A stretch of DNA of 46,076 bases from Desulfuromonadales bacterium (GCA_035620395.1 DASPGW010000043.1:1-46076); one strand, 5' to 3'. Counted from the stretch's first letter, positions 2,609 through 40,876 are shown. The notes: generated by a model from the sequence alone, not told the origin. A program made the numbers and translations.

Positions 2609-5600
2609 GTCGCTGGCCGCGGGGTGGAGCTTTGAAACCCGCCTCTTCGTCCTGCGCCGGCTTCGCCAGTACAACCCCTCCCGCTCTCCCTTCGAGCTGC
2701 TGCGCGGCTGGCTGCGCCGATTGCTCAAGCCGGCCGAGCGCAGCTTCCAGATCCTGCGCGACCCGGAACTGCTCAACGACTGGCGGCGGCGCTTCGAGGT
2801 CGCCGGGTCGCCGAGCGCCTCGGCGGCCTGGAACCGGATTCTCGACCGCGAACTCGACTGGCACGACTATCAGTACCTGACCTACCTGCTGGAGCGACAG
2901 ACCGCCGACATCTTCGCCCCGCCGGCCTTCCTTGACATTTTCCGTAGAATCTATCGTGCCCATATCCTCAAGGAGTACACCGAGGACCCGAACGTGCCGC
3001 GGGCGCCGCTGGTGCTGGTCATCGGCAGCAGCGGCAGCGGCAAGAGCGCCACCGTCAAGCAGGCGATCGAGGAGGCGATCTTCGCCTCCGAGGTGCGGCC
3101 GGTGGTCGATCTGCAGGCCAAGCGCGACGAAATGCTCGCCGACCAGCCATTCTGGCGCACCCTCGAAGACGTCGACCCGGAGCTGGCCGTGCGTATCGAA
3201 CGCCGCCGCAAGGTCGAGCGGCTGCGGTTCATCTCGCGCCTGCCGCTGATCAAGTACCTATTCCGCGAGCGGATCAGCCACGCCCTTTCCTCATTGGAGG
3301 AGGAGGGGGTCTGGGTCGATTACGCCATGATCACTCCCAACGACTATCAGACCGCCTGGGCCGGCGAGCCCGGCAACTACCTGCGCAAGGCGATGGGGGA
3401 TCCGCGGCGCACTTCCATCCGTCATCTTGAGGAGGCGCACTCGGCGCTGGGCCGGGCCGATCAGATGAGCACCGTCAAGGGGCAGCAGGCGACGCTCGTC
3501 GATGCAGCCAACATCATTCTTGACGAGATCGCCTACGGGCGCCGCGACTGTCTGCTGATTGCCACGACCGACCAGCCCGAGCAGTTCGATGCCGCCATCT
3601 ACCGGCGCTTCGTCGAACGGGGGCTGGTCATCGACATCGGCGAGATGTGGGATGAGCCGGAAAACCTGCGCGAGGTGGTGCGCATGGAGCTGCAACGCAA
3701 GAACTTCTCCTTCGGTCCAGCCGCCGGGGAAGCCGGCAGCCGGGTGCTGCCCGAAACGGTTCTGGCCGAGACGGTGCAGAAGCTCTACCCCATATTCCGG
3801 GAACGCAGCCTGCGCATCACGCCGGCCTACGTCCGTCGCCTGATCGATTCCATTCTTGCCCTCAGGGAGGAGTTCTCCGCGGCGTGCCTCGACGATCAGT
3901 ACCTGGTCCGGGATGCTCTCAAGGCGGTGGCCCGCAACGTCCACGGTTCCCTCTACAAGAAAGTGGCGGGGCACATGGATCGCTCCATCCATTGGGAGGA
4001 TTACATCGGCGGCATCAAGAACGAGTTCTCCGAAATGGCCAACAACGCCCTCTACTACCATGTCAGCGATGAGAAGGGGGTAGTGCTGACCGGTCCGCCC
4101 GGCTCGGGCAAGACCTACATGGTGCGGGCCTGGCTGGGGGACAACCGGGAAGTCGCCGACCTCGTGGTCAATCTCAATGACCTGACCGACCCGATGCAGC
4201 CGATCGAAGGGATGGTCGCCAATCTGGAGCGGGTCTACGACATCGCCAAAATGATTTCTCCGTCCATGGTTTTCTTCGACGAGGGAGACGCCGTGGCGCC
4301 GCGCCGTTCGCAACAGGGAGGAAGCCCCTACGACAAGGTGACCAACAAGTTTCTCTCGATCATCGACGGCGAGTCTCCGCTCTCCCGCGTCTTTACCGTG
4401 CTGACCACCAACCGTCTCGATATCCTCGATCCGGCCCTGATTCGTTCCAAACGCCTCAAGGTACTCAACGTCACCGGCCACATGCGGGACGATGACGCCC
4501 TGCGCATCATGCGCAAGGAGCTGCACGACATCCCTCTGGATGAGGGGTTGAGCTTCGAGGAGATGGTGCGGGTCGCCCGGGTGCTTTGCGAAACCCCCGC
4601 CGATTTCACCGCCTTCGCCGAAAAGGTGCGCAGCCTGCGCACCACCGAAATGGAGGTGCTGGCCAAGCTGATGGAGGCGGTGCAGCAGTCGGCGGAGGAG
4701 CGGGCCCGCTTCGTCCGCTTCAATTACAAAACCCTGGTGGGGCTGCTCGAAGGGGGCGGTGGTGAACCGAGCCTGGCGCTCAAGGCGCGGCACGGCGAGG
4801 AAGGGCTCTTGAGCTGCCTCGATGAGGCCGCTGCCCGCCTCGCCCGGGTGCGCGACCTCGGCCTCTACCCGGTAACCCGCTGGCATCTGCACAGCGCCCG
4901 CCAGCAGATGGCCGGCAGTCCGATGCGCAAGGGGAAACAGCAGCTCGACGAGTTTCTCGAGACCGAGCTCTCCCGCGAGCCGCAGGTCGGCTTCGTCGTG
5001 GGGGTGGGCGCCAACGACACCAGCGGGGTGCTGCTGCCGATCGCCTCCTCCCTGGTCTACCGGATGTTTCCCGAGAAGATCGTGGTGACCGGCGCCGTCT
5101 CCTCCGCCGCCCCCGGCGCGGCGGAGCTCGACCTGGCCGTGCAGATGACCCACCAGAGCGCCCGCGAAGCGCTGACCCTGGTGGAGAACTACCTGCAGTC
5201 CCTCTGCCCCTCGCGCAACGTGCCGCGTATCCTCGGCGAGTTCCTCGAGGGCTACTCGCTGCACCATCAGCTGCTTTCCGCCTCCTACAGCGTCGGTGGA
5301 CCATCGGCCGGATTTGCCCTGGCCATCAACACCCTGTCGGTGCTGCTCTGTCTGCCGGTCCTCAACGATTTCGGCATTACCGGGGCGCCCTGGATCAAGG
5401 GGGCGCAGCGCGGCGAGGTCGGCGCCTCGGTGATCATCGGCGGCCATCGCAAGAAGGCGGAAAAGGTCCTGCAGTATCTGCCCCGCATGTACATGCCGAT
5501 GCAGAACTATCAGGACCTCGAGCCCGAGCTGCTGGAAGCCTACAGGCTGGAGGGGCGGGATATCCGGGGCGTTCGCAGCTTTTCGGCGCTGGTCCCCGAG

Positions 5601-5888
5601 GTCTTTTTCTTCGACGACCTGCAGCAGCGGCGGCTGGGCGAATATCTGCGGCTCCGTCTGGATCTCGACCGCAAGGCGGATCTGCCTGAAGGGCTGTCGG
5701 CTTCGGCGAAGAAGGGGGAGCTCGAACGGCGGGAGGCGGAGCTGCGCAGCCAGGCGGAGGAGGAAATCCGCCGCCGGATCGAAGCGATCTGTCTGTGCGT
5801 GGAAAACGGTGGGGCGGTCTACGGAAGCATGGAAGACCTTTTCCGGCTGTCGCCGAAAGCCGTCCAGCGGCAGGAGGACGTGCGCTGA
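2523..5888 (+). CDS. tandem AAA+ ATPase fused to a Lon-type (S16) Ser-Lys protease domain, 1121 aa
   Basis: AAA module 1 has Walker A GSSGSGKS (3024-3047) and LLIATTDQPEQFDAAIYRRF. AAA module 2 is of the classical clade: GPPGSGKT (4092-4115), Walker B MVFFDEGD and SRH-like TTNRLDILDPALIRSKRL. The C-terminal Lon proteolytic domain has GGPSAGFALAINTL (Ser codon 5304-5306) and IIGGHRKKAEK (Lys). The protein ends in a Glu/Arg-rich tail. The start could be ATG 2523 or ATG 2538; both overlap the SPFH gene. Confidence 0.8.
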   Translation: MLQRKMANPRKTRSPIYVRLSEKRIRQIESLAAGWSFETRLFVLRRLRQYNPSRSPFELLRGWLRRLLKPAERSFQILRDPELLNDWRRRFEVAGSPSASAAWNRILDRELDWHDYQYLTYLLERQTADIFAPPAFLDIFRRIYRAHILKEYTEDPNVPRAPLVLVIGSSGSGKSATVKQAIEEAIFASEVRPVVDLQAKRDEMLADQPFWRTLEDVDPELAVRIERRRKVERLRFISRLPLIKYLFRERISHALSSLEEEGVWVDYAMITPNDYQTAWAGEPGNYLRKAMGDPRRTSIRHLEEAHSALGRADQMSTVKGQQATLVDAANIILDEIAYGRRDCLLIATTDQPEQFDAAIYRRFVERGLVIDIGEMWDEPENLREVVRMELQRKNFSFGPAAGEAGSRVLPETVLAETVQKLYPIFRERSLRITPAYVRRLIDSILALREEFSAACLDDQYLVRDALKAVARNVHGSLYKKVAGHMDRSIHWEDYIGGIKNEFSEMANNALYYHVSDEKGVVLTGPPGSGKTYMVRAWLGDNREVADLVVNLNDLTDPMQPIEGMVANLERVYDIAKMISPSMVFFDEGDAVAPRRSQQGGSPYDKVTNKFLSIIDGESPLSRVFTVLTTNRLDILDPALIRSKRLKVLNVTGHMRDDDALRIMRKELHDIPLDEGLSFEEMVRVARVLCETPADFTAFAEKVRSLRTTEMEVLAKLMEAVQQSAEERARFVRFNYKTLVGLLEGGGGEPSLALKARHGEEGLLSCLDEAAARLARVRDLGLYPVTRWHLHSARQQMAGSPMRKGKQQLDEFLETELSREPQVGFVVGVGANDTSGVLLPIASSLVYRMFPEKIVVTGAVSSAAPGAAELDLAVQMTHQSAREALTLVENYLQSLCPSRNVPRILGEFLEGYSLHHQLLSASYSVGGPSAGFALAINTLSVLLCLPVLNDFGITGAPWIKGAQRGEVGASVIIGGHRKKAEKVLQYLPRMYMPMQNYQDLEPELLEAYRLEGRDIRGVRSFSALVPEVFFFDDLQQRRLGEYLRLRLDLDRKADLPEGLSASAKKGELERREAELRSQAEEEIRRRIEAICLCVENGGAVYGSMEDLFRLSPKAVQRQEDVR

Positions 5889-8429: not shown

Positions 8430-8627
8430 CGTTTGCCTCCCCGCGGGATTTGAACCTCTTTATGAACCCAGTATAGCATTGCACTCCGGCATTGCAACGC
8501 GCGGAAAAGACGACAGTTTGGCGCAATGGACCGTCTTTTGCGCCGCCGCAGGGAGGCTCGGCCGGAAAGATTGAAGCGCCGCCTCCTTCTGTTAAGCTGT
8601 TCTAAAATCCCTTGCGGAGGCAATGCC

Positions 8628-11030
8628 ATGGCGCGCAAAGATCTCATCCTGTGGTTCGACCAGATCGGCATGAAGGATGTCCTCCGGGTGGGCGGCAAGA
8701 ACGCCTCGCTGGGGGAGATGGTCCGCAGCCTCTCGCCCGCGGGGGTGAGAATCCCCGATGGCTTCGCGGTGACTGCCGATGCCTACCGTTTCTTCATCGC
8801 AGCGGCCGGGCTTGAGCCGAAGTTGCGGGAGCTGCTCGGCAAGCTCGACACGGAGACGATGGACAATCTATCCGCCATCGGCCGCCGGGCGCGCCGATTG
8901 CTGCGCTCCGCCCCGCTTCCCGACGCTCTGGAGGAGGCGATCCGCCAGGCCTATCGACAGCTTGAGGCAAAGTACGGGGAGGAGTGTGACGTGGCGGTGC
9001 GCTCCAGCGCCACCGCCGAAGATCTGCCGGAGGCCTCCTTTGCCGGCCAGCAGGAGAGCTACCTGAATATCCGCGGCGAGGAGGAGCTGCTCGAGGCAGT
9101 TCGGCGCTGCTTCGCTTCGCTCTTCACCAACCGGGCCATCTCCTACCGTCACGATCAGGGGTTCGGCCATTTCGAGGTGGCCCTTTCGGTCGGTGTGCAG
9201 AAGATGGTGCGCGCCGACAAGGGATGTGCCGGGGTGCTGTTCACCATCGACACCGAATCGGGTTTTCCCGACGTGGTGCTGATCAACGCCGCCTGGGGGC
9301 TCGGCGAAAACGTGGTGCGCGGGGCGGTCAATCCCGACGAATACTACGTCTTCAAACCGACCCTCAAGAAAGGGTGCCGGCCGATTATCGGCAAGAACCT
9401 GGGGAGCAAGGAGAAGAAGATCGTCTACACCGAGGAGGGGGGCAAAGGAACCACCCGGGAGGTGGAGGTTGCCGCCGAGGACCGGCGGCGCTTCTGTCTG
9501 GCGGATGCAGAGGTTCTCGAACTGGCGCGCCTCGCCTGCACCATCGAGGACCACTACGGCCGGCCGATGGACATCGAGTGGGGGCGCGACGGCGAGACCG
9601 GCGAGCTCTACATTCTCCAGGCGCGGCCGGAGACCGTCCAGTCGCTGCGGCAAAAGAGCACGCTGGAGAGCTACCGGCTGCAAGGGGAGGGGGAGGTTCT
9701 GGCCCGCGGCAAGAGCGTCGGCAGCAAGATCGGCGCCGGACGCGCCATGGTGATCAGGGACGCGCACCAGATCGAACGCTTCGAGAAGGGGTGCGTCCTG
9801 GTCACCGGCATGACCGACCCGGACTGGGAGCCGGTGATGAAGAAGGCGGCCGCCATCGTCACCAACCGCGGCGGCCGCACCTGCCATGCCGCCATCGTCA
9901 GCCGCGAGTTGGGGATCCCCTGCGTCATCGGCACCGGCGACGGGACGGAGAAAATTCCGGACGGCGGCGAAGTGACCGTCTCCTGCGCGCAGGGAGAGTC
10001 GGGTCTCGTCTACCGCGGGCGTCTCGAGTACGCGGTGGAGAGAACCGATCTCGCCGAACTGGCGCGGCCCCGCACCGCCATCATGATGAACCTCGGCGAC
10101 CCGGGGCAGGCCTTTGCCCTCTCCCGCATCCCCAACGACGGGGTCGGTCTCGCCCGTCTCGAGTTCATCATCAACACCGCCATCCAGGCGCATCCGCTCG
10201 CCCTGCTGCATCCGGAGCGGGTCGAGGAGAACACGGTGCGGCGGCGTCTGGCCGAGCTGACCGCCGGTTATGCGGACGGCGGCGCGTTCTTCGTCGACCG
10301 GCTGGCCCGGGGGGTGGCGACCATCGCCGCCGCCTTCTTTCCCCGCGACGTGATCGTGCGGATGAGTGACTTCAAGACCAACGAGTACGCAGGCCTGCTC
10401 GGCGGGTCGGCCTTCGAACCGGCCGAGGCCAACCCGATGATCGGTTTCCGCGGCGCCTCCCGCTACTACGACGAGCGCTACCGGGAGGGGTTCCTGCTCG
10501 AATGCGCCGCGATGCGCCAGGTGCGTGAGGAGATGGGGCTGACCAACGTCAAGCTGATGATCCCCTTCTGCCGCACGGTGGAGGAGGGAAAGAAGGTGCT
10601 GGCGGTGATGGCGGAGGCAGGGCTCAAGCGGGGCAGGGACGGCCTCGAGGTCTACGTCATGTGCGAGATCCCGTCCAACGTCATCCTTGCCGAGGAGTTC
10701 GCGGAAATTTTCGACGGCTTCTCCATCGGCTCCAACGACCTCACCCAGCTCATTCTCGGCCTCGACCGGGATTCGGAGATCGTCGCCCATCTCTACGACG
10801 AGCGCAACACCGCGGTGAAGCGCATGGTCGCCGATGGCATCGCCCGGGTGAAGCAGGCCGGGCGCAAGATCGGCATCTGCGGCCAGGCGCCCAGCGATTA
10901 TCCCGAGTTCGCCGAATTTCTCGTCGAGTGCGGCATCGACAGCATCTCCCTCAATCCCGACACGGTCCTGCCGACCACCCTGCGGATCCTGGAGGTAGAG
11001 AAGAAGCTGGCGGCAAAGACCGGTCTCTGA
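8628..11030 (+). CDS. ppsA: phosphoenolpyruvate synthase (pyruvate, water dikinase)
   Basis: ORF track 8526..11030. I moved the start to ATG 8628 (MARKDLILWF) after GGAGG. The N-terminal ATP-grasp has VGGKNASLGEM. The swivel His motif is GGRTCHAAIVSRELGIPCV. The C-terminal PEP/pyruvate domain has GICGQAPSD. Confidence 0.93.
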   Translation: MARKDLILWFDQIGMKDVLRVGGKNASLGEMVRSLSPAGVRIPDGFAVTADAYRFFIAAAGLEPKLRELLGKLDTETMDNLSAIGRRARRLLRSAPLPDALEEAIRQAYRQLEAKYGEECDVAVRSSATAEDLPEASFAGQQESYLNIRGEEELLEAVRRCFASLFTNRAISYRHDQGFGHFEVALSVGVQKMVRADKGCAGVLFTIDTESGFPDVVLINAAWGLGENVVRGAVNPDEYYVFKPTLKKGCRPIIGKNLGSKEKKIVYTEEGGKGTTREVEVAAEDRRRFCLADAEVLELARLACTIEDHYGRPMDIEWGRDGETGELYILQARPETVQSLRQKSTLESYRLQGEGEVLARGKSVGSKIGAGRAMVIRDAHQIERFEKGCVLVTGMTDPDWEPVMKKAAAIVTNRGGRTCHAAIVSRELGIPCVIGTGDGTEKIPDGGEVTVSCAQGESGLVYRGRLEYAVERTDLAELARPRTAIMMNLGDPGQAFALSRIPNDGVGLARLEFIINTAIQAHPLALLHPERVEENTVRRRLAELTAGYADGGAFFVDRLARGVATIAAAFFPRDVIVRMSDFKTNEYAGLLGGSAFEPAEANPMIGFRGASRYYDERYREGFLLECAAMRQVREEMGLTNVKLMIPFCRTVEEGKKVLAVMAEAGLKRGRDGLEVYVMCEIPSNVILAEEFAEIFDGFSIGSNDLTQLILGLDRDSEIVAHLYDERNTAVKRMVADGIARVKQAGRKIGICGQAPSDYPEFAEFLVECGIDSISLNPDTVLPTTLRILEVEKKLAAKTGL

Positions 11031-11092
11031 ACGAAAATGTGATAAAATTCAATTGTCTGCAATCCGCAGGCCGCTCTTCAGGCCGATTGCCT

Positions 11093-14077
11093 ATGACCCG
11101 GATTCTGCTTTCAGCTTTCATGGCGTTTCTGCTCTGCCTCGGGTGTACGGCAAGGGTTTTCGGGAAAAGCCTGCCGACCCTGAGTCACGCCTCGGCCGCT
11201 CCGGCCGGGACGCCCTCCGCCCATCCCGAATCCCTGCCCCCTCCCGAGATTCTGCGTCAGTGGATCGCCCAGATGAAAGAGGCCCCACGGGGCCCTTTCC
11301 AGCGCCTCCGCTGGTTCTGTAAGGATGGCACCATTTTCCCCCCCCAACCCTACGCCTGCCAGGATCACGGCGGGGGGGTACAGCACGGCGAATGGAGCGA
11401 TCGGGTCAAGCTGCTGCGCTCCCACGGGTACCGGATCGCCAATGTGCTTGCCGCTGTCGATCCGGCCTCTTTCAGGAAAGACTCCGATTGGCTGCCGACC
11501 CTCAAGCAGATGCTTCTCGAGCAGTTTCTCATCGAAGCCGACGACGGCTGGATCTATCGTCAGGCCCGTTATTACCCGGGGGCTCTCCAGACCGAAAATG
11601 AAAATGCTTACGGGCGGGCGCTGCTTCTGGATCTGTTGACCGACCGCCGCATGCACAACGAAAATTTCCTGGTGATGCGGGAGGCTGTGCGCCTGCTTCC
11701 GCACGGTCGTCGGGGAGTCCCCCTCATAGAGATGCGTCAATTGGCCCGGACCATCGAGGACAAGGATCCGAATTTCACCCCATTGCGGGTCAAACTCCAT
11801 GTCCGTCCCGATTCGGGGGACGCCGGCCGCGTCCGGACTTATGCCGCCGGCAAGGGGAAGCCCGCTCTGGCCGGGGAGTACTATAATCTGGCCGCGGTCA
11901 TCGACGAGGTCTACACCTCCCGGAATATCGTGGAGGGGTTGCACCAGGCGGCTTCCCGGAGTAGAGACGCCGGTCTGGCCCGGTCGCTCAAACAGGCTGC
12001 GGCTTTGCTGGCGGTGGAGCTGGACCCGGTCCGCCGTTTTGCCACGGTCGCCGCGGCAATGTTCGAAATTCGCCAGACCTTTTCCCGGCCCGGCAGCGCC
12101 ACGCGGATGCTGGAGCTGCTGGATCTCAGCCTCGATCTCGAGCAGGAAGCCTTCCAGCTCGGCAACCAGTGGCTCGACCGCCTGGCCGAGACCGACCGCC
12201 GGGGGCGCCTGGACTGGCTGCAGGGCAGTTCCCGGGTCATTTACGGGATGGGCCTGATTTCCCGGCGGGAGCTCGACGCGCTGGGGGAGAGTTTCCGCCA
12301 GCTTGAAGCCGCCCCGCTGGCGGCCGGCACCTATAAGGCCGAACTCGATTATCTGGCACGAATCTCCGAATGGGCAGAGAATACCCTGCATTTTCACTTC
12401 CAGCAGTCGATCGACCATCTGGCCACCCTCGATCCGCTGTTCGAGCGGTATATCCCCGACCGGCTCCGGGGCAGCCCTCTGGTCTGCCTGATCAGCGTGC
12501 TCGACAGCCTGAGGCTGGATGCCGGCAGGCTGGTCGGCATCCGTCACCAGGTGTTCGGTTCCCCGGTGAGCAGCGGGCTGCGCGCCCTCAACCCCGGGCT
12601 GGCCCGCGGCACACTGCGCTTCTATCGCCCGGAGGCCGGGTGGGAGCGGGAGGCGATCTACCTGCTGCCGGAAACCCTGGCCGAGCTTCCCCCGCTGGCG
12701 GGCATGCTGACCGAGGGGAGAGGCAATGCCCTCTCCCACGTGCAACTGCTGGCCCGCAACCTGGGGATTCCCAATGTCGCCGTCGAGCACCAGCTGGCGG
12801 CGAAGCTGAGGTCCCGGGAGGGGCAGCCGGTGGTCCTGGCGGCCAGCCCCGCCGGGGTGGTCGAACTGGCCGAAGACGGCCGCCGCTGGGATCAAATCTT
12901 TCAGGGTGAACAAGCCTCCGCCGATCTGCTCATCCATCCCGACCTGGCAAAGCTCGATCTGGCCACCCGCGATTTTCTCCCGCTGCGGGACCTCCGGGCG
13001 GCCGCTTCGGGGCGGATCGTCGGGCCCAAGGCGGCCAATCTCGGCGAGCTGAAAAGCCTCTACCCCGACCTGGTGACCGAGGGCCTGGCCATCCCCTTCG
13101 GGCTTTTCCGCCAGCATCTGGAGCAGCCCATCGAGCCCGGCGGCCCGACAGCGTTCCAGTGGATGCAGGAGCAATACGCGGCGCTCCGGCGGATCGAGGA
13201 CCCCCGGGCTCGAGCCTTGGGGGAGACGGGTTTTCTCCATAGTCTGCGGGAGTGGATCATCACCAGCGATCCGGGCCGGAAATTCACCGGCAACCTGCGG
13301 GCGGCCATGGCCCGAACCTTCGGGCCGGAGGGGAGCTACGGCGTTTTCGTCCGCAGCGACACCAACGTGGAAGACCTGCCGGGGTTCTCCGGAGCCGGCC
13401 TGAATCTGACCGTGCCGCACGTGGTCGGCTTCGAAAACGTCCTGCGGGCCATCCTCCAGGTGTGGGCCTCCCCCTTCACCGAGCGGGCCTACGCCTGGCG
13501 TCAGGGACATATGGAGCAGCCCGAGCAGGTCTACGTATCGGTTCTGCTGATGCGAAGCGTTCCGGCGGAAAAGTCGGGGGTCATGGTCACTGCCGACATC
13601 GAGACGGGGAATCGGGACTGGGTGACCGTGGCGGTGAACGAGGGGGTGGGCGGCGCCGTAGAGGGGCAGCGGGCCGAGGAACTCCTGATCGACCGGCGCA
13701 GCGGCCGGGTCCGTCTGCTGGCCCAGGCTGCCGAACCGCTCAAACGGGTTCTGCGTCCCGGGGGCGGCGTCGGCAAGGTCCCCGCCAGCGGGGTGGAGAG
13801 CATTTTATCCAGCGAGGAAATCCGGACCCTGGTACAGATGGCCGACAGTCTCCCCGGGCGTTTCCCGAGCCAGGTCGATGCCGGCGGAAAATCGGCGCCG
13901 GCGGACATCGAATTCGGTTTTGTCGACAACCGCTTCGTCCTGTTCCAGATCCGCCCCTTCCTGGAAAGTTCCCGGGCCCGCCGCAGCCTTTATCTGCAGC
14001 GGCTCGACGCGCAGATGGAAGGAGCCGGCGCCCGCACCGTCGATCTGGAAGAAATTCCCCGGGAGGGCGGGTCATGA
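11093..14077 (+). CDS. secreted PEP-utilising-family dikinase-like protein with permuted (GWD-like) domain order
   Basis: The ORF-track frame opens at 10661, inside ppsA. The first plausible start is ATG 11093 (MTRILLSAFMAFLLCLGCTARVFG, a signal peptide). About 500 aa of the N-terminal region carry no motif I recognise. The phospho-His swivel domain has GRGNALSHVQLLARNLGIPNV (His codon 12737-12739). The C-terminal PPDK_N/ATP-grasp domain has GPKAANLGEL, VFVRSDTNVEDLPGFSGAGL, EKSGVMVTAD and DIEFGFVDNRFVLFQIRP. No PEP/pyruvate TIM-barrel domain is present. Confidence 0.8.
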   Translation: MTRILLSAFMAFLLCLGCTARVFGKSLPTLSHASAAPAGTPSAHPESLPPPEILRQWIAQMKEAPRGPFQRLRWFCKDGTIFPPQPYACQDHGGGVQHGEWSDRVKLLRSHGYRIANVLAAVDPASFRKDSDWLPTLKQMLLEQFLIEADDGWIYRQARYYPGALQTENENAYGRALLLDLLTDRRMHNENFLVMREAVRLLPHGRRGVPLIEMRQLARTIEDKDPNFTPLRVKLHVRPDSGDAGRVRTYAAGKGKPALAGEYYNLAAVIDEVYTSRNIVEGLHQAASRSRDAGLARSLKQAAALLAVELDPVRRFATVAAAMFEIRQTFSRPGSATRMLELLDLSLDLEQEAFQLGNQWLDRLAETDRRGRLDWLQGSSRVIYGMGLISRRELDALGESFRQLEAAPLAAGTYKAELDYLARISEWAENTLHFHFQQSIDHLATLDPLFERYIPDRLRGSPLVCLISVLDSLRLDAGRLVGIRHQVFGSPVSSGLRALNPGLARGTLRFYRPEAGWEREAIYLLPETLAELPPLAGMLTEGRGNALSHVQLLARNLGIPNVAVEHQLAAKLRSREGQPVVLAASPAGVVELAEDGRRWDQIFQGEQASADLLIHPDLAKLDLATRDFLPLRDLRAAASGRIVGPKAANLGELKSLYPDLVTEGLAIPFGLFRQHLEQPIEPGGPTAFQWMQEQYAALRRIEDPRARALGETGFLHSLREWIITSDPGRKFTGNLRAAMARTFGPEGSYGVFVRSDTNVEDLPGFSGAGLNLTVPHVVGFENVLRAILQVWASPFTERAYAWRQGHMEQPEQVYVSVLLMRSVPAEKSGVMVTADIETGNRDWVTVAVNEGVGGAVEGQRAEELLIDRRSGRVRLLAQAAEPLKRVLRPGGGVGKVPASGVESILSSEEIRTLVQMADSLPGRFPSQVDAGGKSAPADIEFGFVDNRFVLFQIRPFLESSRARRSLYLQRLDAQMEGAGARTVDLEEIPREGGS

Positions 14078-15327
14078 AACGGCGGCTGGCGTTCCTGGGA
14101 ATTCTGGTGTTTTTGCTCGCCGCCTGGCCAGCATGGTCCTACCCGGTCGACGGGGAAGATTACACCGGCATTTCCCGTCTGGAAGGATACCGCCGCGCGC
14201 AGCAGCGGCTCCTGCCCAAGGGGGCGCGGCTCCCCCTGAAGGAAGTCGACCTGCGCCTGACGGACCGGCGGGATTTGGCGCTCCCCCCCAGCGACCCGGA
14301 ATTCAGCCGCCAGATCCTCCGCCTGCTGGGGGAGGAGGCCGACCGCTACGCCATTGCCGTGCTCGACCTTTCCGACCCGGACCAGCCCCGCTATGCCGAG
14401 CATCGGGGGGAAGTCAACCACAATCCCGGCAGCGTCGGCAAGCTGGTCATTGCCCTGGGGGTTTTCCAGGCACTGGCCGACCTTTACCCGGATGACATCG
14501 CCGCCCGGGAACGGGTGCTCCGGCAGACGATGGTGACCGCCGACGCTTTTATCCTCTCCGATCATCACAAGGTCCCCTTCTGGAACCCTGCCGAGCAGCG
14601 CATCAACTCCCGGCCCCTGCAGGTCGGCGATCGGGCCAGCCTCTGGGCCTGTCTCGACTGGATGCTCTCGGCCAGTTCCAACGCGGCGGCGAGCATGGTG
14701 TTGAAGGAGCTGCTGCTGCTGAACCACTTTGGCCGGGACTATCCGGTCGGCAAGACCAGGGAAGAAAAGTTCTGGCGGGAAACGGGCAAGCGGGAGCTTT
14801 CCGCGCTCCTCACCCGCAGCCTGCAGGATCCCGTTTCCCACAACGGCCTGGACCTCGACCAACTGCGGCAGGGAGGCTTCTTTACCTGGAAGGGGAAACA
14901 ACTGGTCCCCGGAACCAGCAGCCGCGCCTCGCCGAGGATGCTGATGGAGTATCTGGTGCGGCTGGAGCAGGGGAGGCTGGTGGACGAGTTCTCCAGCCGC
15001 GAAATCAAGCGGCTGCTCTACATGACCCAGCGCCGGATCCGTTATGCCTCAAGTCCGGCGCTGGCCGAGGCGGCAGTCTACTTCAAGTCGGGATCGTTGT
15101 ACCGGTGCAAGCCGGAGCCGGGCTTCGTCTGCCGAAAATACCAGGGCAACGTCGAGAACCTGTTGAATTCGGTGGCGATCGTCGAACACCCCGCGGGCGA
15201 GCGGCGGCTGCATTATCTGGTGGTGGTGATGTCGAACGTGTTGAGGAAGAATTCGGCGGTGGAGCACCAGAGCCTGGCGACCCGGGTGCACCGCCTCATC
15301 GAGGTCAGCCGCGGGGACGGCAGATGA
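14074..15327 (+). CDS. secreted class-A beta-lactamase-fold serine hydrolase
   Basis: ATG 14074 overlaps the upstream TGA (ATGA). The signal peptide is MKRRLAFLGILVFLLAAWPAWS. Motifs present are SxxK (SVGK), SxN (MLSASSNAAA) and KSG (YFKSGSL). Confidence 0.75.
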   Translation: MKRRLAFLGILVFLLAAWPAWSYPVDGEDYTGISRLEGYRRAQQRLLPKGARLPLKEVDLRLTDRRDLALPPSDPEFSRQILRLLGEEADRYAIAVLDLSDPDQPRYAEHRGEVNHNPGSVGKLVIALGVFQALADLYPDDIAARERVLRQTMVTADAFILSDHHKVPFWNPAEQRINSRPLQVGDRASLWACLDWMLSASSNAAASMVLKELLLLNHFGRDYPVGKTREEKFWRETGKRELSALLTRSLQDPVSHNGLDLDQLRQGGFFTWKGKQLVPGTSSRASPRMLMEYLVRLEQGRLVDEFSSREIKRLLYMTQRRIRYASSPALAEAAVYFKSGSLYRCKPEPGFVCRKYQGNVENLLNSVAIVEHPAGERRLHYLVVVMSNVLRKNSAVEHQSLATRVHRLIEVSRGDGR

Positions 15328-16183
15328 GATTGTCGAGGGAGACGATGAGCTTGCTGAGCCATTGCCCGCCGTCCGGGTCTTTGGCCAGGGCGACGGCGAT
15401 GTAGCGGTGCCCGTCGTGTTCGATGATGCCGCTGTCGGCGTGAAAATTTTGCCAGGTCCCGGATTTGCGGTAGATCTTCGCAGCACGCCCGGCCTGCTCG
15501 AGCCCCTTGACGAACTTGTGGTGAATGGCCGGCTGGCCGAGAATTTCCTTCATTTCCCGGCTCATTTCGGGGGAAACCAGGCGACCGGTTTCGAGCAGGT
15601 AGTAAAACCGGGCGACCTGGAAGGCGGTGGCGCCATGGGAGAGGTTGTGCAGCGGGTCGCGTTTCCAGGCGGAGGCCTTGCCGTAGTCCTTGCCGACCCA
15701 GAGCCCGCCGTTCATTTCGGGGTCGTAGAGGCGGTAGCGGGGCGATTCCAGGAGGCGGGCCAGGTAGTCCTTGCCGACCAGGTTCAGCATTTCGGTGGCG
15801 GCCTGGTTGGAGGAGTTGCGGATCATCCGGGTCAGCTTCTCCCGGAGGGCGCCGGTCAGGGTCAGCTCCCCCTTCTCGATCCGGTCGAAAGCTCCGAACA
15901 GGATGGCGATTTTCGGCAGGCTGGCGGCATACATCATCCTGTCGCCGTTGACCGACGCCAGGCGCGGCGACTCGGGATCGGTGATGTCGACCAGCGCTAC
16001 GCAGAGGGATTTGTTGCGGACGGCCTGGTCCAGCTTGAGGGCTGCCAGAGAATCTTCCAGCCCCTGCTGCAGAACCTGGTCGGCACAGGCCTCCAGAGGC
16101 GGCAGCGGGGCCTGGGCCCGAGCCGGCAGGATCGAGAAAACGAGCAGAATCACCAGCAGGATACGCAGCATCGGAAAAATCAT
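15305..16183 (-). CDS. secreted class-A beta-lactamase-fold serine hydrolase (paralogue, convergent)
   Basis: ORF track 15305..16225. The start is ambiguous: ATG 16183 (MIFPMLRILL) or ATG 16171 (MLRILL). A signal peptide is present. Motifs are SLPK, IRNSSNQAAT (SxN) and IYRKSGTW (KSG). The 3' end overlaps the convergent gene by 23 nt. Confidence 0.75.
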   Translation of the reverse strand: MIFPMLRILLVILLVFSILPARAQAPLPPLEACADQVLQQGLEDSLAALKLDQAVRNKSLCVALVDITDPESPRLASVNGDRMMYAASLPKIAILFGAFDRIEKGELTLTGALREKLTRMIRNSSNQAATEMLNLVGKDYLARLLESPRYRLYDPEMNGGLWVGKDYGKASAWKRDPLHNLSHGATAFQVARFYYLLETGRLVSPEMSREMKEILGQPAIHHKFVKGLEQAGRAAKIYRKSGTWQNFHADSGIIEHDGHRYIAVALAKDPDGGQWLSKLIVSLDNLICRPRG

Positions 16184-16215
16184 AGGGGCGGATTGTACCG
16201 AATTCTCGAGGGAAA

Positions 16216-17490
16216 ATGCAACCAATTGATTTGAAAAAAGAGCCGGAGAAGGGTGCCGCCCGGGAGTCTAATCTCCGCACCTTGCAGGTAAGGGCCTGTT
16301 TTCTTTTCCTGAATTTCCTGCTGATCATCATGGCCCTTTATCAGCTGAAGCCGGCCAGTCGCTCGCTGTTCATCCAGTTTCTGGGCGCGGACCAGCTTCC
16401 CTACGTCTGGATCGGGACGGCTGTGGTCATGGGGGCACTGATTACCTGGTACCATCGGCTGGTCGAGCGGCATGCGCGGGTGCGGGTGGTCTTCGGCAGC
16501 TGTCTTCTGTTCGGCGCGCTGCTGGTTCTTTTCCGGCTGCTCTTCAACCGCCCGCATCCGGCGACGGCCATCGCCTTTTACATTTTTGTCGACATCCTCA
16601 GCGTGGTCCTGGTAGAGCAGTTCTGGAGCCTGACCAACTCCATCTACAGCACGCGGGAAGGCAAGGCCTGGTACGGTTTCATCGGCACCGGTGGCCTTTT
16701 GGGAGGCGTGCTCGGTGGCGGCGCCGGGGTCCTGCTTCTCAAATATACCCCGTTGCAGACGCCGGATCTGCTCCTCGTGGCTGCCGGCAGTATCCTGCTC
16801 ATTATGGCGCTAACCTGGGTAATGGGACGGCTCGGGATCTATCGCGAAGTGGCTAAGCGGGGGCGCCCCACCCGCTTCGAAGGAGGCTGGCGGGCGTTGC
16901 AGCAGAACCGTTACCTGCTGCTGATCGCCGGCATCCTGCTGCTCGCCCAGCTGGTCGACCCCATCGTGGAATACCAGTTCCTGAAAACGGTCGAAGTCCA
17001 TTATGCCGAACTGGAGGCGCGCACCACCTTTCTCTCGGGTTTTTTCGGTGTCCTCGGCATGGTTGCCATCGCCGTCAACCTTGGCCTTACCCCCCTGGTG
17101 CATCGCTATCTTGGCGTGATTGCCGGTCTGTTGATCCAGCCGCTGGCGTTGGGCGCCTGCTCTTTGGGTTTCTTCGCCAACCCCACCCTGCTTTTCGGGG
17201 CGGCAGCCAAGATCAGCGACCGGGGGCTCTCCTATTCCATCAATCGGGCCTCCAAGGAACTGCTCTACGTCCCTACCGACTCGGTGCTGATCTACCAGGC
17301 CAAAGCCTGGATCGATATGTTCGGTTACCGCCTGTTCAAGATCTTCGGGTCCTTTGTCATTCTCATCTTCACCCGGTGGCTTCCCTTTTCCGTCGAGGTT
17401 CCCCAGCTCAGCTGGTTCACCGTCGGCATCTGCGTTCTCTGGGTCGTGCTCATCGTGGCCCTTCGCCGGGACTACGTGAAGTTCGCCTGA
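16216..17490 (+). CDS. polytopic membrane carrier, TLC/Npt-like (ADP/ATP-translocase family) MFS-type
   Basis: About 11-12 hydrophobic segments are visible. The N-terminal LFLNFLLIIMALYQLKPASRSLFIQFLGADQLPYVW resembles the conserved start of COG3202/TLC carriers. Being a membrane transporter is near certain; the family assignment is tentative. Confidence 0.6.
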   Translation: MQPIDLKKEPEKGAARESNLRTLQVRACFLFLNFLLIIMALYQLKPASRSLFIQFLGADQLPYVWIGTAVVMGALITWYHRLVERHARVRVVFGSCLLFGALLVLFRLLFNRPHPATAIAFYIFVDILSVVLVEQFWSLTNSIYSTREGKAWYGFIGTGGLLGGVLGGGAGVLLLKYTPLQTPDLLLVAAGSILLIMALTWVMGRLGIYREVAKRGRPTRFEGGWRALQQNRYLLLIAGILLLAQLVDPIVEYQFLKTVEVHYAELEARTTFLSGFFGVLGMVAIAVNLGLTPLVHRYLGVIAGLLIQPLALGACSLGFFANPTLLFGAAAKISDRGLSYSINRASKELLYVPTDSVLIYQAKAWIDMFGYRLFKIFGSFVILIFTRWLPFSVEVPQLSWFTVGICVLWVVLIVALRRDYVKFA

Positions 17491-17531
17491 AAAGGAGAAC
17501 GGCGCAATCGTTTCTGCCGGGACAAGATTTC

Positions 17532-17559
17532 TTGACAGCCGGAGCTGGATGATTATCCT
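17532..17559 (+). promoter_or_regulatory. candidate promoter of hsp20
   Basis: TTGACA (17532-17537), 16-nt spacer, TATCCT (17554-17559). The -35 sits in the context CTTGACA, which also resembles the sigma-32 -35 element (CTTGAAA), but no CCCCAT-type -10 is present. Confidence 0.35.
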
Positions 17560-17583
17560 TGGAAAATCGTGCCCTTCACCTTG

Positions 17584-17601
17584 TCCGGCAAACGTTTGCC
17601 G
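17584..17601 (+). promoter_or_regulatory. 18-nt perfect palindrome in the hsp20 leader
   Basis: CCGGCAAACGTTTGCCGG lies about 30 nt upstream of the hsp20 start codon, between the candidate promoter and the SD. Confidence 0.4.
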
Positions 17602-17632
17602 GAAGCGGCGAAGGAATCCCCGGGAGGAGTCT

Positions 17633-18076
17633 ATGGCGATCGTGAAATGGGACCCGCTGCGCGAGCTGCGGGCGATGCAGGAGCAGATGAACCGGTTGTT
17701 CGAGATGAGCCGCGACCGCACTTTTGGCGAACCCTTCGAACAGGGGCTCTGGCAGCCGCCGGTCGACATCTACGAGGACGACCGGGAGGTGGTGGTGAAG
17801 ATGGAGGTGCCCGAGGTCGAACAGAAAGACATCGACGTGCACATCGAGGAGGGAACCCTGATCATCCAGGGGGAGCGCAAGCTCGAGCGGGAGGAGAAAA
17901 AGCAAAATTACCACCGCATCGAACGCAGCTACGGCACCTTCCGCCGCAGCTTTTCCCTGCCGGGCACCGTGGATCAGGGGGAGGTCAGCGCCACCTGCGA
18001 AAAAGGGGTGCTCAAGGTCGTGCTGCCGAAAAAGGGGGCCGGCCAGTCGCGGCACATCGAGGTGGAAATTAAATAA
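17633..18076 (+). CDS. Hsp20/alpha-crystallin small heat-shock protein
   Basis: ORF track 17549..18076. I moved the start to ATG 17633 (MAIVKWDPLREL) after GGGAGGAG. The alpha-crystallin core includes PPVDIYEDDREVVVKMEVPEV, YGTFRRSFSLPG and GVLKVVLPK. Confidence 0.93.
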   Translation: MAIVKWDPLRELRAMQEQMNRLFEMSRDRTFGEPFEQGLWQPPVDIYEDDREVVVKMEVPEVEQKDIDVHIEEGTLIIQGERKLEREEKKQNYHRIERSYGTFRRSFSLPGTVDQGEVSATCEKGVLKVVLPKKGAGQSRHIEVEIK

Positions 18077-40432: not shown

Positions 40433-40876
40433 TCAGGGATTGATATCGATGGTGAAAGAGTCGGAGTAAACGTCGGCGGCTGCAACCTGATAGACGCCGT
40501 CGGCGATCCTGCCGGTGACGGTGACGTTCTGGGTGAGCCCGTTACCCAGGCCGTTAAGGGTGTAGCCGTCGATGGAGTACGCCATGTTCGTTCCAGTGAA
40601 GGCACCGGCCATCGTCTTGGCGTTCGCCTCGTTATCGAGGGTCCAGGTCGTACCGTTGGAACAGGTGAACGCGAGATTCACGGAAGCTGTCCTGTCGCCG
40701 GTACCCGCGGGGTCGATTTCCCCGAAAGCCATGTTGTAGCTAGTGGTGTCAAACGCGCAGGTCCCCAGTACCGTTGCCGATACGTTGATGGTGGCGGTAT
40801 CCGCAGCCAAAGCGTTGCCGGCCGTCAGAACGCCGACGAGAGATAGAGCCAGTGCCGCCAGTTTCATCTTCTTCAT
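40433..40876 (-). CDS. SCPU-domain pilus subunit 1 (probable major subunit)
   Basis: MKKMKLAALALSLVGVLTAGNALA is the signal peptide, with AAGGAGG SD 7 nt upstream. The Cys pair is GTCAFD ... FTCSNG. The C-terminal strand is DVYSDSFTIDINP. Confidence 0.85.
   Translation of the reverse strand: MKKMKLAALALSLVGVLTAGNALAADTATINVSATVLGTCAFDTTSYNMAFGEIDPAGTGDRTASVNLAFTCSNGTTWTLDNEANAKTMAGAFTGTNMAYSIDGYTLNGLGNGLTQNVTVTGRIADGVYQVAAADVYSDSFTIDINP

Follow-up and report, generated by a model that had tools for sequence, protein, structure and literature searches.

How could an ATP-dependent enzyme work in the periplasm, a compartment that is thought to be free of ATP? This question is raised by a dikinase gene in the 46,076-nt stretch of Desulfuromonadales DNA analysed here (the window; all coordinates are counted from its first letter). 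A preliminary description of the locus regarded the gene product as an exported dikinase with the domain order of plant glucan, water dikinase (GWD), encoded next to a canonical ppsA. Below we analyse the protein, its family and its gene neighbourhood, and suggest how ATP may reach it.

Domain architecture and conservation of the dikinase

The dikinase gene (11093..14077, plus strand, stop codon included) is an open reading frame whose translation is identical to the 994-aa protein quoted previously. According to Pfam and to an AlphaFold2 (AF2) model covering the entire protein (pLDDT 82.8, pTM 0.81), a predicted signal peptide is followed by an all-helical domain of approximately 440 aa, a phospho-histidine swivel domain and a C-terminal ATP-grasp domain, while Pfam revealed no PEP-utilizers_C TIM barrel in the 994 aa. 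The claimed succession of a substrate-side domain, a His domain and a C-terminal ATP-grasp domain without TIM barrel is thus real.

The swivel domain (aa 483-612; 12539..12928, plus strand) was recognized by Pfam, by its conservation and by a beta-rich fold in the AF2 model. The Pfam match to PEP-utilizers at aa 524-569 is weak, its 21.9 bits being just under the gathering cut-off of 23.1. His549 (CAC codon, 12737-12739) is located within ALSHVQLLARNLGIP, and S548-H549 is kept in 94 of 96 divergent representatives, showing that the swivel histidine pointed out earlier is conserved. The same is true for the ATP site of the ATP-grasp nucleotide-binding domain (aa 640-963; 13010..13981, plus strand), in which K646, R754, D938, E940, Q952 and R954 are each retained by 93 or more of the 96 sequences. 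We take the spacing of D938/E940/Q952/R954 to be the same as that of D321/E323/Q335/R337 in PPDK. This domain matches Pfam PPDK_N at aa 642-963 (E 6.6e-30), and with Foldseek it was found to resemble rifampin phosphotransferase (5hv1, E 1.9e-13) and the isolated ATP domain of that enzyme (5hv6_B, TM 0.86). Domain order and conserved catalytic residues are observed properties.

The N-terminal domain (aa 44-481; 11222..12535, plus strand) comprises a small beta subdomain, marked by the motif RGPFxRxRWFCxDG...YAC...GGGVQHGEW, and after it approximately 20 alpha-helices (pLDDT 87.6 in an AF2 model of aa 44-502). The N-terminal 500 aa or so had been called unrecognised, and we agree: aa 1-520 have no Pfam match, and the structure search that had been proposed for this region, conducted here with Foldseek, detected no PDB relative, with the best match in PDB and BFVD no better than E 0.3. 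In a search of 1.84 billion representatives, the domain was found solely at the N-terminus of proteins of about 970-1000 aa. Six of its residues (G67, W74, Q97, W153, E170 and R327) are present in 96/96 sequences and H236 in 95/96. Presumably, this domain binds the acceptor.

The dikinase family is uncharacterised so far. Its members occur in the genomes of no fewer than 599 species and fall into 609 clusters at 50% identity. Its hosts are Desulfobacterota, sulfur-oxidising Gammaproteobacteria, Nitrospirae and Myxococcota. No full-length member was found on the 72,556 plasmids searched.

Prediction of export

The first 24 aa (MTRILLSAFMAFLLCLGCTARVFG; 11093..11164, plus strand) are predicted to be a Sec-type signal peptide, with a basic n-region, a hydrophobic N-terminus and small residues at positions -3 and -1. 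This call was made with a simple heuristic based on hydropathy, charge and an AxA site, along with inspection of the N-termini. Of 118 homologues whose N-terminus is intact, 114 showed signal-peptide character in the heuristic scan, though the sequence itself varies. By this measure the signal peptide noticed earlier in the single protein is a conserved trait of the family, and export itself stays a prediction. In the AF2 model aa 17-42 are disordered. The signal peptide has no lipobox, since the Cys residues in this segment vary among homologues. The first methionine past the hydrophobic segment, M61, sits within a conserved LRxWIxxMK helix, and therefore a downstream start of the dikinase is excluded. 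A start beyond the hydrophobic segment had been named in the preliminary description among the outcomes that would speak against it; none of these outcomes was observed.

The mature dikinase contains three Cys residues, compared to 17 in the neighbouring PpsA. Two of them, Cys76 (11318-11320) and Cys89 (11357-11359; the pair spans 11318..11359, plus strand), are invariant in 31/31 aligned members and in 95/96 sequences. No other Cys is conserved, and seven of the 31 aligned members have no Cys besides these two. This pair likely forms a disulfide. Judging from these features of the sequence, and from the signal peptides of the two hydrolase partners and the invariant Cys pair of BLA1 described below, the dikinase is predicted to be exported by the Sec system to the periplasm.

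The adjacent ppsA gene is not part of the conserved locus

The dikinase gene starts 62 nt downstream of a canonical ppsA (8526..11030, plus strand; NF005057 1200.8 bits, cut-off 598) and on the same strand. Together with the frequent automatic annotation of its relatives as 'phosphoenolpyruvate synthase', this could suggest an ordinary cytoplasmic PEP synthase paralogue acting as a partner of PpsA. However, the dikinase lacks the TIM barrel and has a reversed domain order, whereas PpsA shows the order ATP-grasp, His, TIM barrel in the same Pfam scan. With 88.9 bits for NF005057 (cut-off 598), the dikinase is far under every PpsA cut-off, and the homologues are likewise distinct from ordinary PpsA paralogues, as none of them attains any NCBIfam cut-off. 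Further, when 82 homologue loci were searched by tblastn with the PpsA of the window, no true ppsA was found beside the dikinase gene, and the matches fell only within the ATP-grasp part of the dikinase itself. The reported vicinity of ppsA thus holds for the window, but it is not conserved (0/82 homologue loci). The adjacency is coincidental, and ppsA represents context outside the conserved module. Domain order, family scores and the context of the homologue loci refute the PEP synthase paralogue, to which we assign a negligible chance.

A conserved module of four genes

The conserved unit at this locus, which was missing from the preliminary description, consists of four genes: the dikinase gene, an overlapping gene for a beta-lactamase-fold hydrolase (BLA1), a gene for a paralogous hydrolase (BLA2) and a gene for a TLC/NTT carrier. 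Counting the gene families around the dikinase (79 loci) revealed BLA1 in 65, the TLC carrier in 54 and BLA2 in 54 loci, with the next commonest family in 12. When only the 55 loci with enough flanking sequence are considered, BLA1 is present in 53, BLA2 in 48 and the TLC carrier in 51, and 46 contain all three; BLA1 directly adjoins the dikinase gene on the same strand in 50 of them, and no TLC gene was found within 8 kb in four. In the reciprocal test, which required no less than 5.5 kb upstream of TLC, the dikinase gene was found in 33 of 33 TLC-seeded metagenome loci. The linkage persists across several gene orders and a swap to a second TLC subfamily, the module occupies varied chromosomal contexts, and the module partners are 53-79% identical between orders and phyla.

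BLA1 (14074..15327, plus strand) encodes a 417-aa serine hydrolase of the beta-lactamase fold (Beta-lactamase2 40.5 bits, cut-off 22), and its start overlaps the stop codon of the dikinase gene (ATGA). It has a signal peptide and is predicted to be exported. Invariant among 13 orthologues are S120-x-x-K123, S199xS201S202N, K338-S-G340 and the Cys pair 345/353. BLA2 (15305..16183, minus strand, with an alternative TTG start at 16225) corresponds to a 292-aa beta-lactamase/PBP-A-like serine hydrolase (Beta-lactamase2, PF13354, 74.6 bits, cut-off 22), which also has a signal peptide and is also predicted to be exported. Here S88-L-P-K91, S124xN126 and K240-S-G242 are invariant among 12 orthologues. 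A weak match of BLA2 to Tll2115 (PDB 2j7v) was obtained (E 1.2e-3), and hhalign indicates that BLA2 is a paralogue of BLA1 (97.7% probability). For BLA1 and BLA2, NCBIfam gave no match, and profile searches of the PDB were empty.

The fourth gene (16216..17490, plus strand) encodes an inner-membrane carrier of 424 aa with about 11-12 predicted transmembrane segments, eleven of which appear as segments in the hydropathy profile. It matches Pfam TLC (PF03219) with 60.4 bits (cut-off 21), while its score for TIGR00769 (NTP/NDP exchange transporter), 44.9 bits, is well under the cut-off of 387.2. Its sole PDB relative is 9j3n, 'ADP,ATP carrier protein 1' (E 1.8e-6), with which it has the motifs FW..N and KE..Y.P.D...KA.ID in common. 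By these sequence criteria the carrier appears as a distant branch of the TLC/NTT family. Because the dikinase gene is nearly always beside the carrier gene, the carrier may supply ATP to the dikinase.

Proposed function and alternative explanations

We propose, with confidence and doubt in about equal parts, that the dikinase is a periplasmic 'acceptor, water dikinase' which is fed ATP by the co-encoded carrier and acts on an envelope substrate together with the two hydrolases. After export by the Sec system, ATP would be bound by the C-terminal ATP-grasp domain and its beta-phosphate would be received by His549 on the swivel, with release of AMP and Pi. The swivel would then hand the phosphate on to the acceptor, which the all-helical N-terminal domain would hold, the mechanism presumably being that of plant glucan, water dikinase without the starch-binding modules. 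The TLC/NTT carrier would deliver ATP across the inner membrane and probably take back the adenine-nucleotide product in return, which would remove the paradox that an enzyme depends on ATP in a place poor in it. Both hydrolases of the PBP-A/class-A-beta-lactamase fold would act on the envelope substrate of the dikinase. The most likely candidate for this substrate is a peptidoglycan-related or another D-aminoacyl/ester-containing component; since the N-terminal domain has no detectable relative, nothing ties the acceptor to peptidoglycan. The gene linkage is observed; we infer export, which way the carrier moves nucleotides and what the acceptor is.

It is tempting to go one step further and to speculate that the carrier exports ATP to fuel an exported GWD-like dikinase, which phosphorylates an envelope polymer (e.g. 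peptidoglycan) and thereby primes it for the PBP-like hydrolases, comparable to the way in which GWD prepares starch for amylases. This extended scheme is tentative, and we doubt it somewhat more than we believe it. If true, free-living diderm bacteria would have a dedicated system for ATP-driven chemistry beyond the cytoplasm, with the first route to be defined by which ATP enters the periplasm and with a dikinase that would be the first in this compartment. The route of ATP into the periplasm is an acknowledged open question (PMC7432876). Several points speak against the periplasmic dikinase proposed above: ATP released there may leak via porins or be hydrolysed by periplasmic phosphatases (PMC7432876), the carrier is a distant member of its family, whose characterised carriers import nucleotides, four of the 55 informative loci show no TLC gene within 8 kb, and the Pfam match of the swivel domain stays under the gathering cut-off.

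An exported and active dikinase could also obtain ATP or other NTPs from leakage, lysis or neighbouring cells, with a TLC protein that is no ATP exporter and instead salvages AMP/ADP or imports external nucleotides. To our knowledge, every characterised TLC/NTT carrier serves nucleotide uptake, and the tight linkage fits product salvage equally. Moreover, extracellular or periplasmic ATP has been reported at nanomolar to micromolar levels, and periplasmic Lig E is believed to draw on it. Nevertheless we regard this possibility as unlikely: in sediments ATP is likely scarce and a source on which a conserved, housekeeping-like module could hardly rely, exchange carriers can run either way and follow the gradients, which here favour ATP moving out and AMP/ADP moving in, and the exclusive one-to-one link (33/33) suits a stoichiometric partner better than general salvage. 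Slightly less probable still is the inactivation of an antibiotic or toxin in the periplasm, by which the dikinase would phosphorylate a drug as rifampin phosphotransferase (Rph) does, and the two beta-lactamase homologues would bind or hydrolyse this compound or one related to it. The closest solved structures to the ATP-grasp domain are indeed rifampin phosphotransferases, and the partners belong to Beta-lactamase2 with intact SxxK, SxN and KSG. However, the N-terminal domain is unrelated to the rifampin-binding domain of Rph, the domain order differs, and no PADLOC or NCBIfam resistance model matches. The module's presence in no fewer than 599 species, at chromosomal sites of varied context and with no full-length member on the plasmids searched, also speaks against it, and the partners are so similar across orders and phyla (53-79% identity) that the module looks like a conserved physiological function and not like a mobile resistance trait.

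Other alternatives concern the location of the catalytic domains and the direction of the reaction. The N-terminal segment could be an uncleaved anchor or an annotation artefact, leaving the dikinase tethered to the membrane with its catalytic domains in the cytoplasm, where ATP-dependent chemistry normally takes place. The export call is based on a crude heuristic; still, basic residues precede the hydrophobic core, so that by the positive-inside rule most of the protein lies outside, this core is followed by AxA-type sites in most homologues, and conservation excludes a downstream start. Further, few Cys and a single invariant pair, as seen here, are typical of proteins that are exported, the two hydrolase partners have signal peptides and belong to exported enzyme types, and an enzyme in the cytoplasm would have no use for a dedicated nucleotide carrier. 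In our view this makes a cytoplasmic dikinase improbable. Less probable still is a module running in reverse, in which the dikinase would form ATP out of AMP and Pi with the help of a high-energy phosphoryl donor in the periplasm, and the TLC carrier would import this ATP. As far as we know, PPDK-type dikinases are reversible and TLC carriers classically import ATP, and the hosts are energy-limited sediment anaerobes and sulfur oxidisers. Such a module would, however, require a donor with a group-transfer potential like that of PEP, of which none is known in the periplasm, and it would have no role for the two serine hydrolases. Moreover, GWD-type enzymes run irreversibly in the forward direction (PMC13553574).

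Comparison with known systems

The periplasmic acceptor, water dikinase that we propose is most readily compared with GWD1 and PWD (EC 2.7.9.4 and 2.7.9.5; potato StGWD1). Potato GWD1 has a central all-alpha domain, a 4-aa loop, a His domain and an ATP-binding domain (PMC13553574). The order of a helical domain, a His domain and a C-terminal ATP-grasp domain without TIM barrel is found in both enzymes. The all-alpha domain of GWD1 is described as having approximately 20 helices; in the AF2 model of the dikinase about 20 helices span aa 50-481, and a link of about four residues joins them to the strand with which the His domain starts. The published layout therefore bears out the GWD-like order that had been suggested, but homology to GWD specifically is not shown. 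In size and topology class the helices fit the description of the GWD1 central domain; the PDB entries of that GWD domain, 9HA9 and 9QVI, were absent among the Foldseek matches. The Pfam scan (E <= 0.1) gave only PEP-utilizers and PPDK_N and not the GWD-type phosphohistidine family PF22973, whose presence in the searched copy is unconfirmed. The His motif LSHV...ARN of the dikinase resembles LSHVSVRARN in GWD fragments, and alignment of the family His domain with GWD His-domain fragments by hhalign was marginal (E 1.1e-4, probability 56.7%). The expected chemistry is also alike (ATP + acceptor + H2O -> AMP + acceptor-P + Pi via His-P). In contrast to GWD, the dikinase is bacterial, has a predicted signal peptide and a small beta subdomain with a Cys pair, and lacks CBM45 or CBM20 starch-binding modules, which were found neither by Pfam in aa 1-520 nor in the model, where a small two-strand subdomain and helices are present but no beta-sandwich. 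The acceptor almost certainly differs from starch.

With PpsA and PPDK the dikinase shares a homologous ATP-grasp domain with the same Lys/Arg/Asp/Glu/Gln/Arg set and a swivelling phospho-His domain. It differs from them by the permuted order with the His domain ahead of ATP-grasp, by the missing TIM barrel and by its predicted export, and it scores 78.2 bits for TIGR01418 (cut-off 739.75). The Rph family, including flavonoid phosphate synthetase and PigC/RedH, provides the closest solved structures to its ATP-grasp domain (5hv1) and likewise consists of two-function dikinases without TIM barrel that phosphorylate a non-pyruvate acceptor. Rph, however, is a cytoplasmic enzyme with the order ATP-grasp, substrate domain and C-terminal His domain, and the acceptor domain of the dikinase is unrelated. 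Accordingly, only the ATP-grasp part aligns with NF041857 (Rph; 82.5 bits, cut-off 999).

Similarly to PBP-A/class A beta-lactamase-like DD-peptidases such as Thermosynechococcus Tll2115 (PDB 2j7v), BLA1 and BLA2 have the SxxK, SxN and KSG motifs and signal peptides, but they are very distant from these enzymes, and BLA1 carries large insertions along with an additional Cys pair. A precedent is known from Gram-negative bacteria, in which another enzyme that needs ATP has a signal peptide and poses the same question of the ATP source; its fold and chemistry are unrelated, and the part of its description considered here does not mention a dedicated nucleotide carrier. Finally, the carrier belongs to Pfam TLC and resembles the TLC/NTT nucleotide transporters (TC 2.A.12) of Chlamydiae, Rickettsiales and plastids in its family motifs and in its approximately 11-12 transmembrane segments. 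It is, however, a shorter and distant relative from free-living sediment bacteria, and the ATP export to the periplasm proposed here would be the opposite of the classical role of these transporters in energy parasitism.

Domain order and active-site residues of the dikinase

The ORF at 11093-14077 (+) translates into the 994-aa protein quoted in the preliminary description. By Pfam, aa 642-963 form a PPDK_N ATP-grasp domain (E 6.6e-30), which is preceded at aa 524-569 by a PEP-utilizers swivel domain that scored 21.9 bits and thus slightly below the gathering score of 23.1 bits. The PEP-utilizers_C TIM barrel was absent from the Pfam scan, and aa 1-520 gave no Pfam match. Together with an AlphaFold2 model, these data confirmed the domain order read earlier from the sequence (swivel ahead of ATP-grasp, TIM barrel missing), and the swivel His549 is indeed encoded by the CAC codon at 12737-12739.

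The AlphaFold2 models were confident for the full protein (pLDDT 82.8, pTM 0.81) and for aa 44-502 (pLDDT 87.6). The predicted signal peptide is followed by a disordered linker and by a small beta subdomain, which holds a Cys pair and the near-invariant motif RGPFxRxRWFCxDG...YAC...GGGVQHGEW. Then come about 20 alpha-helices, reaching as far as residue 481; roughly 4 residues link them to the beta-rich His domain, and the ATP-grasp domain is last. With the whole model, Foldseek matched ATP-grasp domains only, among them those of rifampin phosphotransferase (Rph; 5hv1, E 1.9e-13; 5hv6_B, TM 0.86), PEP synthase (PpsA; 2ols) and HpeI (9goj), the PPDKs being more distant. The isolated N-domain (aa 44-481, presumed to bind the acceptor) had a best E of 0.32 in the PDB (to April 2026) and no match better than 0.3 in BFVD, and sequence and profile searches of the PDB with this domain returned nothing.

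Residue conservation was assessed in an alignment of 95 divergent full-length representatives and the window protein (n = 96). The swivel Ser-His (S548-H549) is kept in 94 of the 96 sequences, so that the conservation of this histidine, on which the earlier reading depended, is confirmed. In the ATP-grasp domain, K646, R754, D938, E940, Q952 and R954 are each kept in at least 93. The D-x-E-x11-Q-x-R spacing is that of D321/E323/Q335/R337 in PPDK, and structures of the PPDK mutants K22A and R337A were among the Foldseek matches. Based on the conservation of these residues and of S548-H549, both the nucleotide site and the phospho-carrier histidine are intact. The protein is a His-swivel dikinase with the domain order of plant alpha-glucan, water dikinase (GWD).

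The upstream gene ppsA (8526-11030; NF005057, 1200.8 bits) has the order ATP-grasp, His domain, TIM barrel. To the NCBIfam models of PpsA, Rph and PigC, the dikinase aligns solely via its ATP-grasp domain, and its scores stay well short of the cut-offs (88.9 bits versus 598 for PpsA, for example); the view that it is an ordinary PpsA paralogue is refuted. The neighbouring ppsA, pointed out in the preliminary description, was rejected as a functional partner, because 82 homologue loci revealed no true ppsA next to the dikinase gene.

As listed, the ppsA ORF opens at 8526 with an Arg-rich extension of 34 aa (MDRLLRRRREARPERLKRR...). Since PpsA family models align with its product only from about residue 37-40, the true start, as judged from the sequence, is probably the Met near 8628 (MARKDLILWF; window 8526-8630). 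Third-position GC is 0.75 in the dikinase ORF and 0.70 in the ORF spanning BLA1, the next gene, versus 0.78-0.90 in neighbouring genes and 0.86 in ppsA. The lower values in 11093-15327 may point to weaker expression or to a separate history.

Conserved signal peptide and cysteine pair

The N-terminus varies in sequence and keeps its character: one or two basic residues come first, and a hydrophobic core and AxA-like sites follow. Signal-peptide character was scored by a simple heuristic and is present in 114 of the 118 homologues whose N-terminus is intact, and the four exceptions resemble truncated gene calls. The predicted signal peptide is conserved across the family. A start downstream of the hydrophobic segment, which would have removed it, is excluded, since the next Met (M61) is located inside the conserved helix LRxWIxxMK. 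A lipoprotein was also considered, given the lipobox-like LLCLGC, and rejected, since even homologues with 82-85% identity do not keep the Cys.

The homologues are Cys-poor (2-6 Cys per ~980 aa) and have exactly one invariant Cys pair, C76/C89 (31/31; 95/96 sequences). The neighbouring cytoplasmic PpsA has 17 Cys in 834 aa. One conserved pair in a Cys-depleted protein is the expectation for a disulfide-bonded exported protein, and the pattern seen in the dikinase sequences would match it.

Three partner genes

Directly 3' of the dikinase gene lie BLA1, BLA2 and the gene for a TLC carrier. BLA1 (14074-15327, +) encodes a 417-aa protein of the Beta-lactamase2 family with a signal peptide and an invariant Cys pair of its own; the start codon of BLA1 and the stop codon of the dikinase gene overlap (ATGA). 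BLA2 (15305-16183, -) encodes a paralogue of BLA1 (hhalign 97.7%) of 292 aa, also with a signal peptide. The SxxK, SxN and KSG motifs are invariant in both. Profile searches of the PDB gave nothing useful for the two hydrolases; the only PDB relatives of BLA2 were Tll2115 (2j7v), a cyanobacterial PBP-A, and BlaB. The TLC carrier (16216-17490, +; 424 aa, about 11 hydrophobic segments) belongs to PF03219 (60.4 bits, cut-off 21), the TLC family of ATP/ADP translocases, while its match to TIGR00769 (NTP/NDP exchange transporter) is weak (44.9 bits, cut-off 387). Its sole PDB match was 'ADP,ATP carrier protein 1' (9j3n), with which it has the family motifs FW..N and KE..Y.P.D...KA.ID in common.

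The 3' ends of BLA1 and BLA2 show a convergent overlap of 23 bp (15305-15327). The start codons of BLA2 and the TLC gene are divergent and only about 32 bp apart (16183-16216), and therefore their promoters must sit within coding sequence. A consensus scan revealed no promoters there, and promoter and terminator scanning of 10900-17700 gave nothing above the shuffled expectation.

Distribution of the family and conservation of the module

A word-indexed search brought up over 600 relatives of the dikinase. The best 120 are 52-89% identical to it, and 117 of them have 960-1011 aa, the remaining three being shorter; if named at all, relatives are called 'hypothetical protein' or 'PEP/pyruvate-binding domain-containing protein'. 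One genome per species was scanned, and relatives turned up in no fewer than 599 species. Most of these are Desulfobacterales, Desulfuromonadales or other Desulfobacterota, and the others include Gammaproteobacteria (Ectothiorhodospiraceae, Sedimenticolaceae, Methylococcaceae), Nitrospirae, Myxococcota and one spirochaete MAG. An exhaustive HMMER search of 1.84 billion representatives with the N-domain alone yielded 609 clusters. In every one of the best 150 of these the domain is at the N-terminus, and it was therefore found in no other architecture; 95 of the 150 are near-full-length proteins (900-1051 aa).

No full-length member was present in 72,556 plasmids, and a plasmid or mobile origin was rejected. 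The same applies to a role in anti-phage defence, since the four module proteins had no PADLOC match. We found no curated NCBIfam or PADLOC model covering the family or the module.

The four genes occur together, with unrelated outer flanks, in the complete genome of Desulfuromonas versatilis (locus DESUT3_19820) and on a 965-kb MAG contig. Of 55 species loci reaching at least 4.5 kb downstream, 53 contain BLA1 (50 of them on the same strand and directly adjacent to the dikinase gene), 48 BLA2 and 42 a close TLC orthologue, with a second TLC subfamily (also PF03219) in a further 9; 46 loci had all three partners. Unsupervised clustering of the ORFs from the 82 loci and the window revealed only these four gene families as conserved (79, 65, 54 and 54 loci), the next most frequent being found in 12. 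The linkage is retained in at least four different gene orders; for example, TLC may be upstream of the dikinase gene (L041, L056) or between BLA1 and BLA2 (L026, L035, L038, L080), and BLA2 may be upstream (L045, L050, L058). In the reciprocal test, a metagenome scan seeded with the TLC carrier, the dikinase was found in 33/33 loci with at least 5.5 kb upstream, and each hydrolase in 32/33. Where 1.2 kb or more was available upstream, BLA2 was present in 57/58 loci. These counts show a carrier subfamily that is dedicated to the module. The dikinase is genetically linked to a carrier of the TLC family and to two exported serine hydrolases that have the PBP/beta-lactamase fold.

In 66 of the 69 loci with BLA1, identity to the window proteins is higher for the partners detected than for the dikinase (exceptions L018, L023 and L081): it is about 53-79% for BLA1, BLA2 and close TLC orthologues and 47-54% for the dikinase. 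In D. versatilis the values are 72%, 79% and 76% for BLA1, BLA2 and TLC versus 54% for the dikinase. BLA2 is only 44-45% identical in L026, L035, L038 and L081.

The second TLC subfamily is divergent (22-26% identity to the window carrier) and substitutes for the usual carrier in 10 loci (L034, L045-L047, L050, L051, L058, L065, L074, L078), in three of which (L045, L050, L058) BLA2 is upstream of the dikinase gene. Its member at 12449-14032 in L050 (527 aa, 28 bits) scores above the PF03219 gathering score. In a Desulfobacterium MAG (L030, 12361-17034), dikinase and BLA1 genes are followed by genes for a HAMP histidine kinase, a sigma-54 response regulator and a Na/Pi cotransporter with PhoU, BLA2 and TLC being missing there; these neighbours hint at a link to phosphate handling.

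Possible function of the module

Going beyond sequence, model and synteny, we infer that the dikinase works in the periplasm. The TLC carrier would supply it with cytoplasmic ATP and take the adenine-nucleotide product in exchange, and the beta-phosphate would be passed via His549 to an acceptor that the helical N-domain holds. BLA1 and BLA2 may act on the same envelope component, and because of the nature of these partners our best guess for the acceptor is a peptidoglycan-related or other D-aminoacyl/ester substrate. It is tempting to speculate that, by analogy to GWD, phosphorylation could open a polymer to the hydrolases.

The periplasm is commonly regarded as free of ATP. According to a review, the route by which ATP passes the inner membrane into the periplasm is unknown, and no homologue of the ATP/ADP translocase is known from Gram-negative bacteria (PMC7432876); the proposed ATP supply fits this acknowledged gap. 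The same question of the ATP source is raised by Lig E, a periplasmic ATP-dependent ligase.

Since classical TLC carriers import nucleotides, it is plausible that the carrier serves nucleotide salvage and exports no ATP, but this is a poorer fit to its one-to-one linkage with the dikinase. Should the N-terminal segment be an uncleaved anchor, the catalytic domains would be cytoplasmic. Its charge distribution and AxA sites, the Cys pattern, the exported partners BLA1 and BLA2 and the very existence of the carrier argue against such a topology. A dikinase running in reverse as an ATP-harvesting device is thermodynamically implausible without a PEP-like donor.

Rph-like chemistry next to beta-lactamase homologues would also suit a module that inactivates antibiotics. 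However, the dikinase is chromosomal and present in at least 599 species, full-length members are absent from the plasmids searched, and the partners, 53-79% identical across phyla, are more conserved than the dikinase itself in 66 of the 69 loci with BLA1.

The chemistry of the dikinase is of a known kind. We found no description in the literature of the family, its periplasmic targeting or its dedicated nucleotide carrier, and full-text searches on periplasmic dikinases, TLC-borne ATP export to the periplasm, bacterial GWD homologues and NTT structures brought up no paper that deals with the family or the module. There is a substantial chance that the whole module, as an ATP-supplied periplasmic phosphorylation system, represents a new kind of system. 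In hundreds of free-living Gram-negative species a gene of the translocase family is locked to a predicted exported enzyme with a fully conserved ATP site. If the proposal is true, it defines a mechanism of ATP supply to the periplasm, places His-swivel dikinase chemistry in the cell envelope, and implies that sulfate reducers and sulfur oxidisers abundant in sediments contain a phosphorylated envelope component. It would further suggest a free-living, non-parasitic role of TLC/NTT carriers and bear on the origin of the transporters of energy parasites. The module is open to experiment, since D. versatilis, which carries it, is in culture and fully sequenced.

Other features of the window

Three c-di-GMP-I-class riboswitch aptamers are located within 1.2 kb on the minus strand (41052-41143, 41897-41997 and 42172-42272), where they precede the minus-strand ORFs around 40433-40876. 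The GGC variant model RF03167 matches one of them (65.9 bits), and RF01051 matches the other two (65.7 and 57.4 bits). A cluster or tandem of such aptamers suggests an organism akin to Geobacter/Desulfuromonas. At 1598-5888 (+), a gene for an SPFH/Band-7 protein (336 aa) overlaps the next gene, which encodes a 1121-aa protein with STAND/AAA_16-like and AAA ATPase domains and a weak Lon C-terminal protease domain, an unusual pairing.

Comparison with plant GWD

Potato GWD1 consists of five domains, including two CBM45 modules and an all-alpha central domain, and has a 4-residue loop ahead of its His domain (H992); its C-terminal ATP-binding domain aligns best with that of Listeria Rph (PMC13553574, 2026 JBC). 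Apart from the CBMs, the dikinase has the same layout, and it resembles GWD1 in the size of the helical domain and in the shortness of the link that leads to the His domain. Around the histidine, LSHVQLLARN is similar to LSHVSVRARN of GWD. The GWD-like domain order that was claimed at the outset stands. Homology to GWD proper is no more than a possibility: CBM modules are missing from the dikinase, Pfam reported no match to the GWD-specific His-domain family PF22973, and the profile-profile match between the His domains of the two families is marginal (probability 56.7%, E 1.1e-4), the GWD side comprising only short His-domain exon fragments. That the dikinase works like a GWD is, as an analogy, well supported by its anatomy, and if the proposal on the whole module is true, GWD-type architecture reaches from plastids into bacteria.
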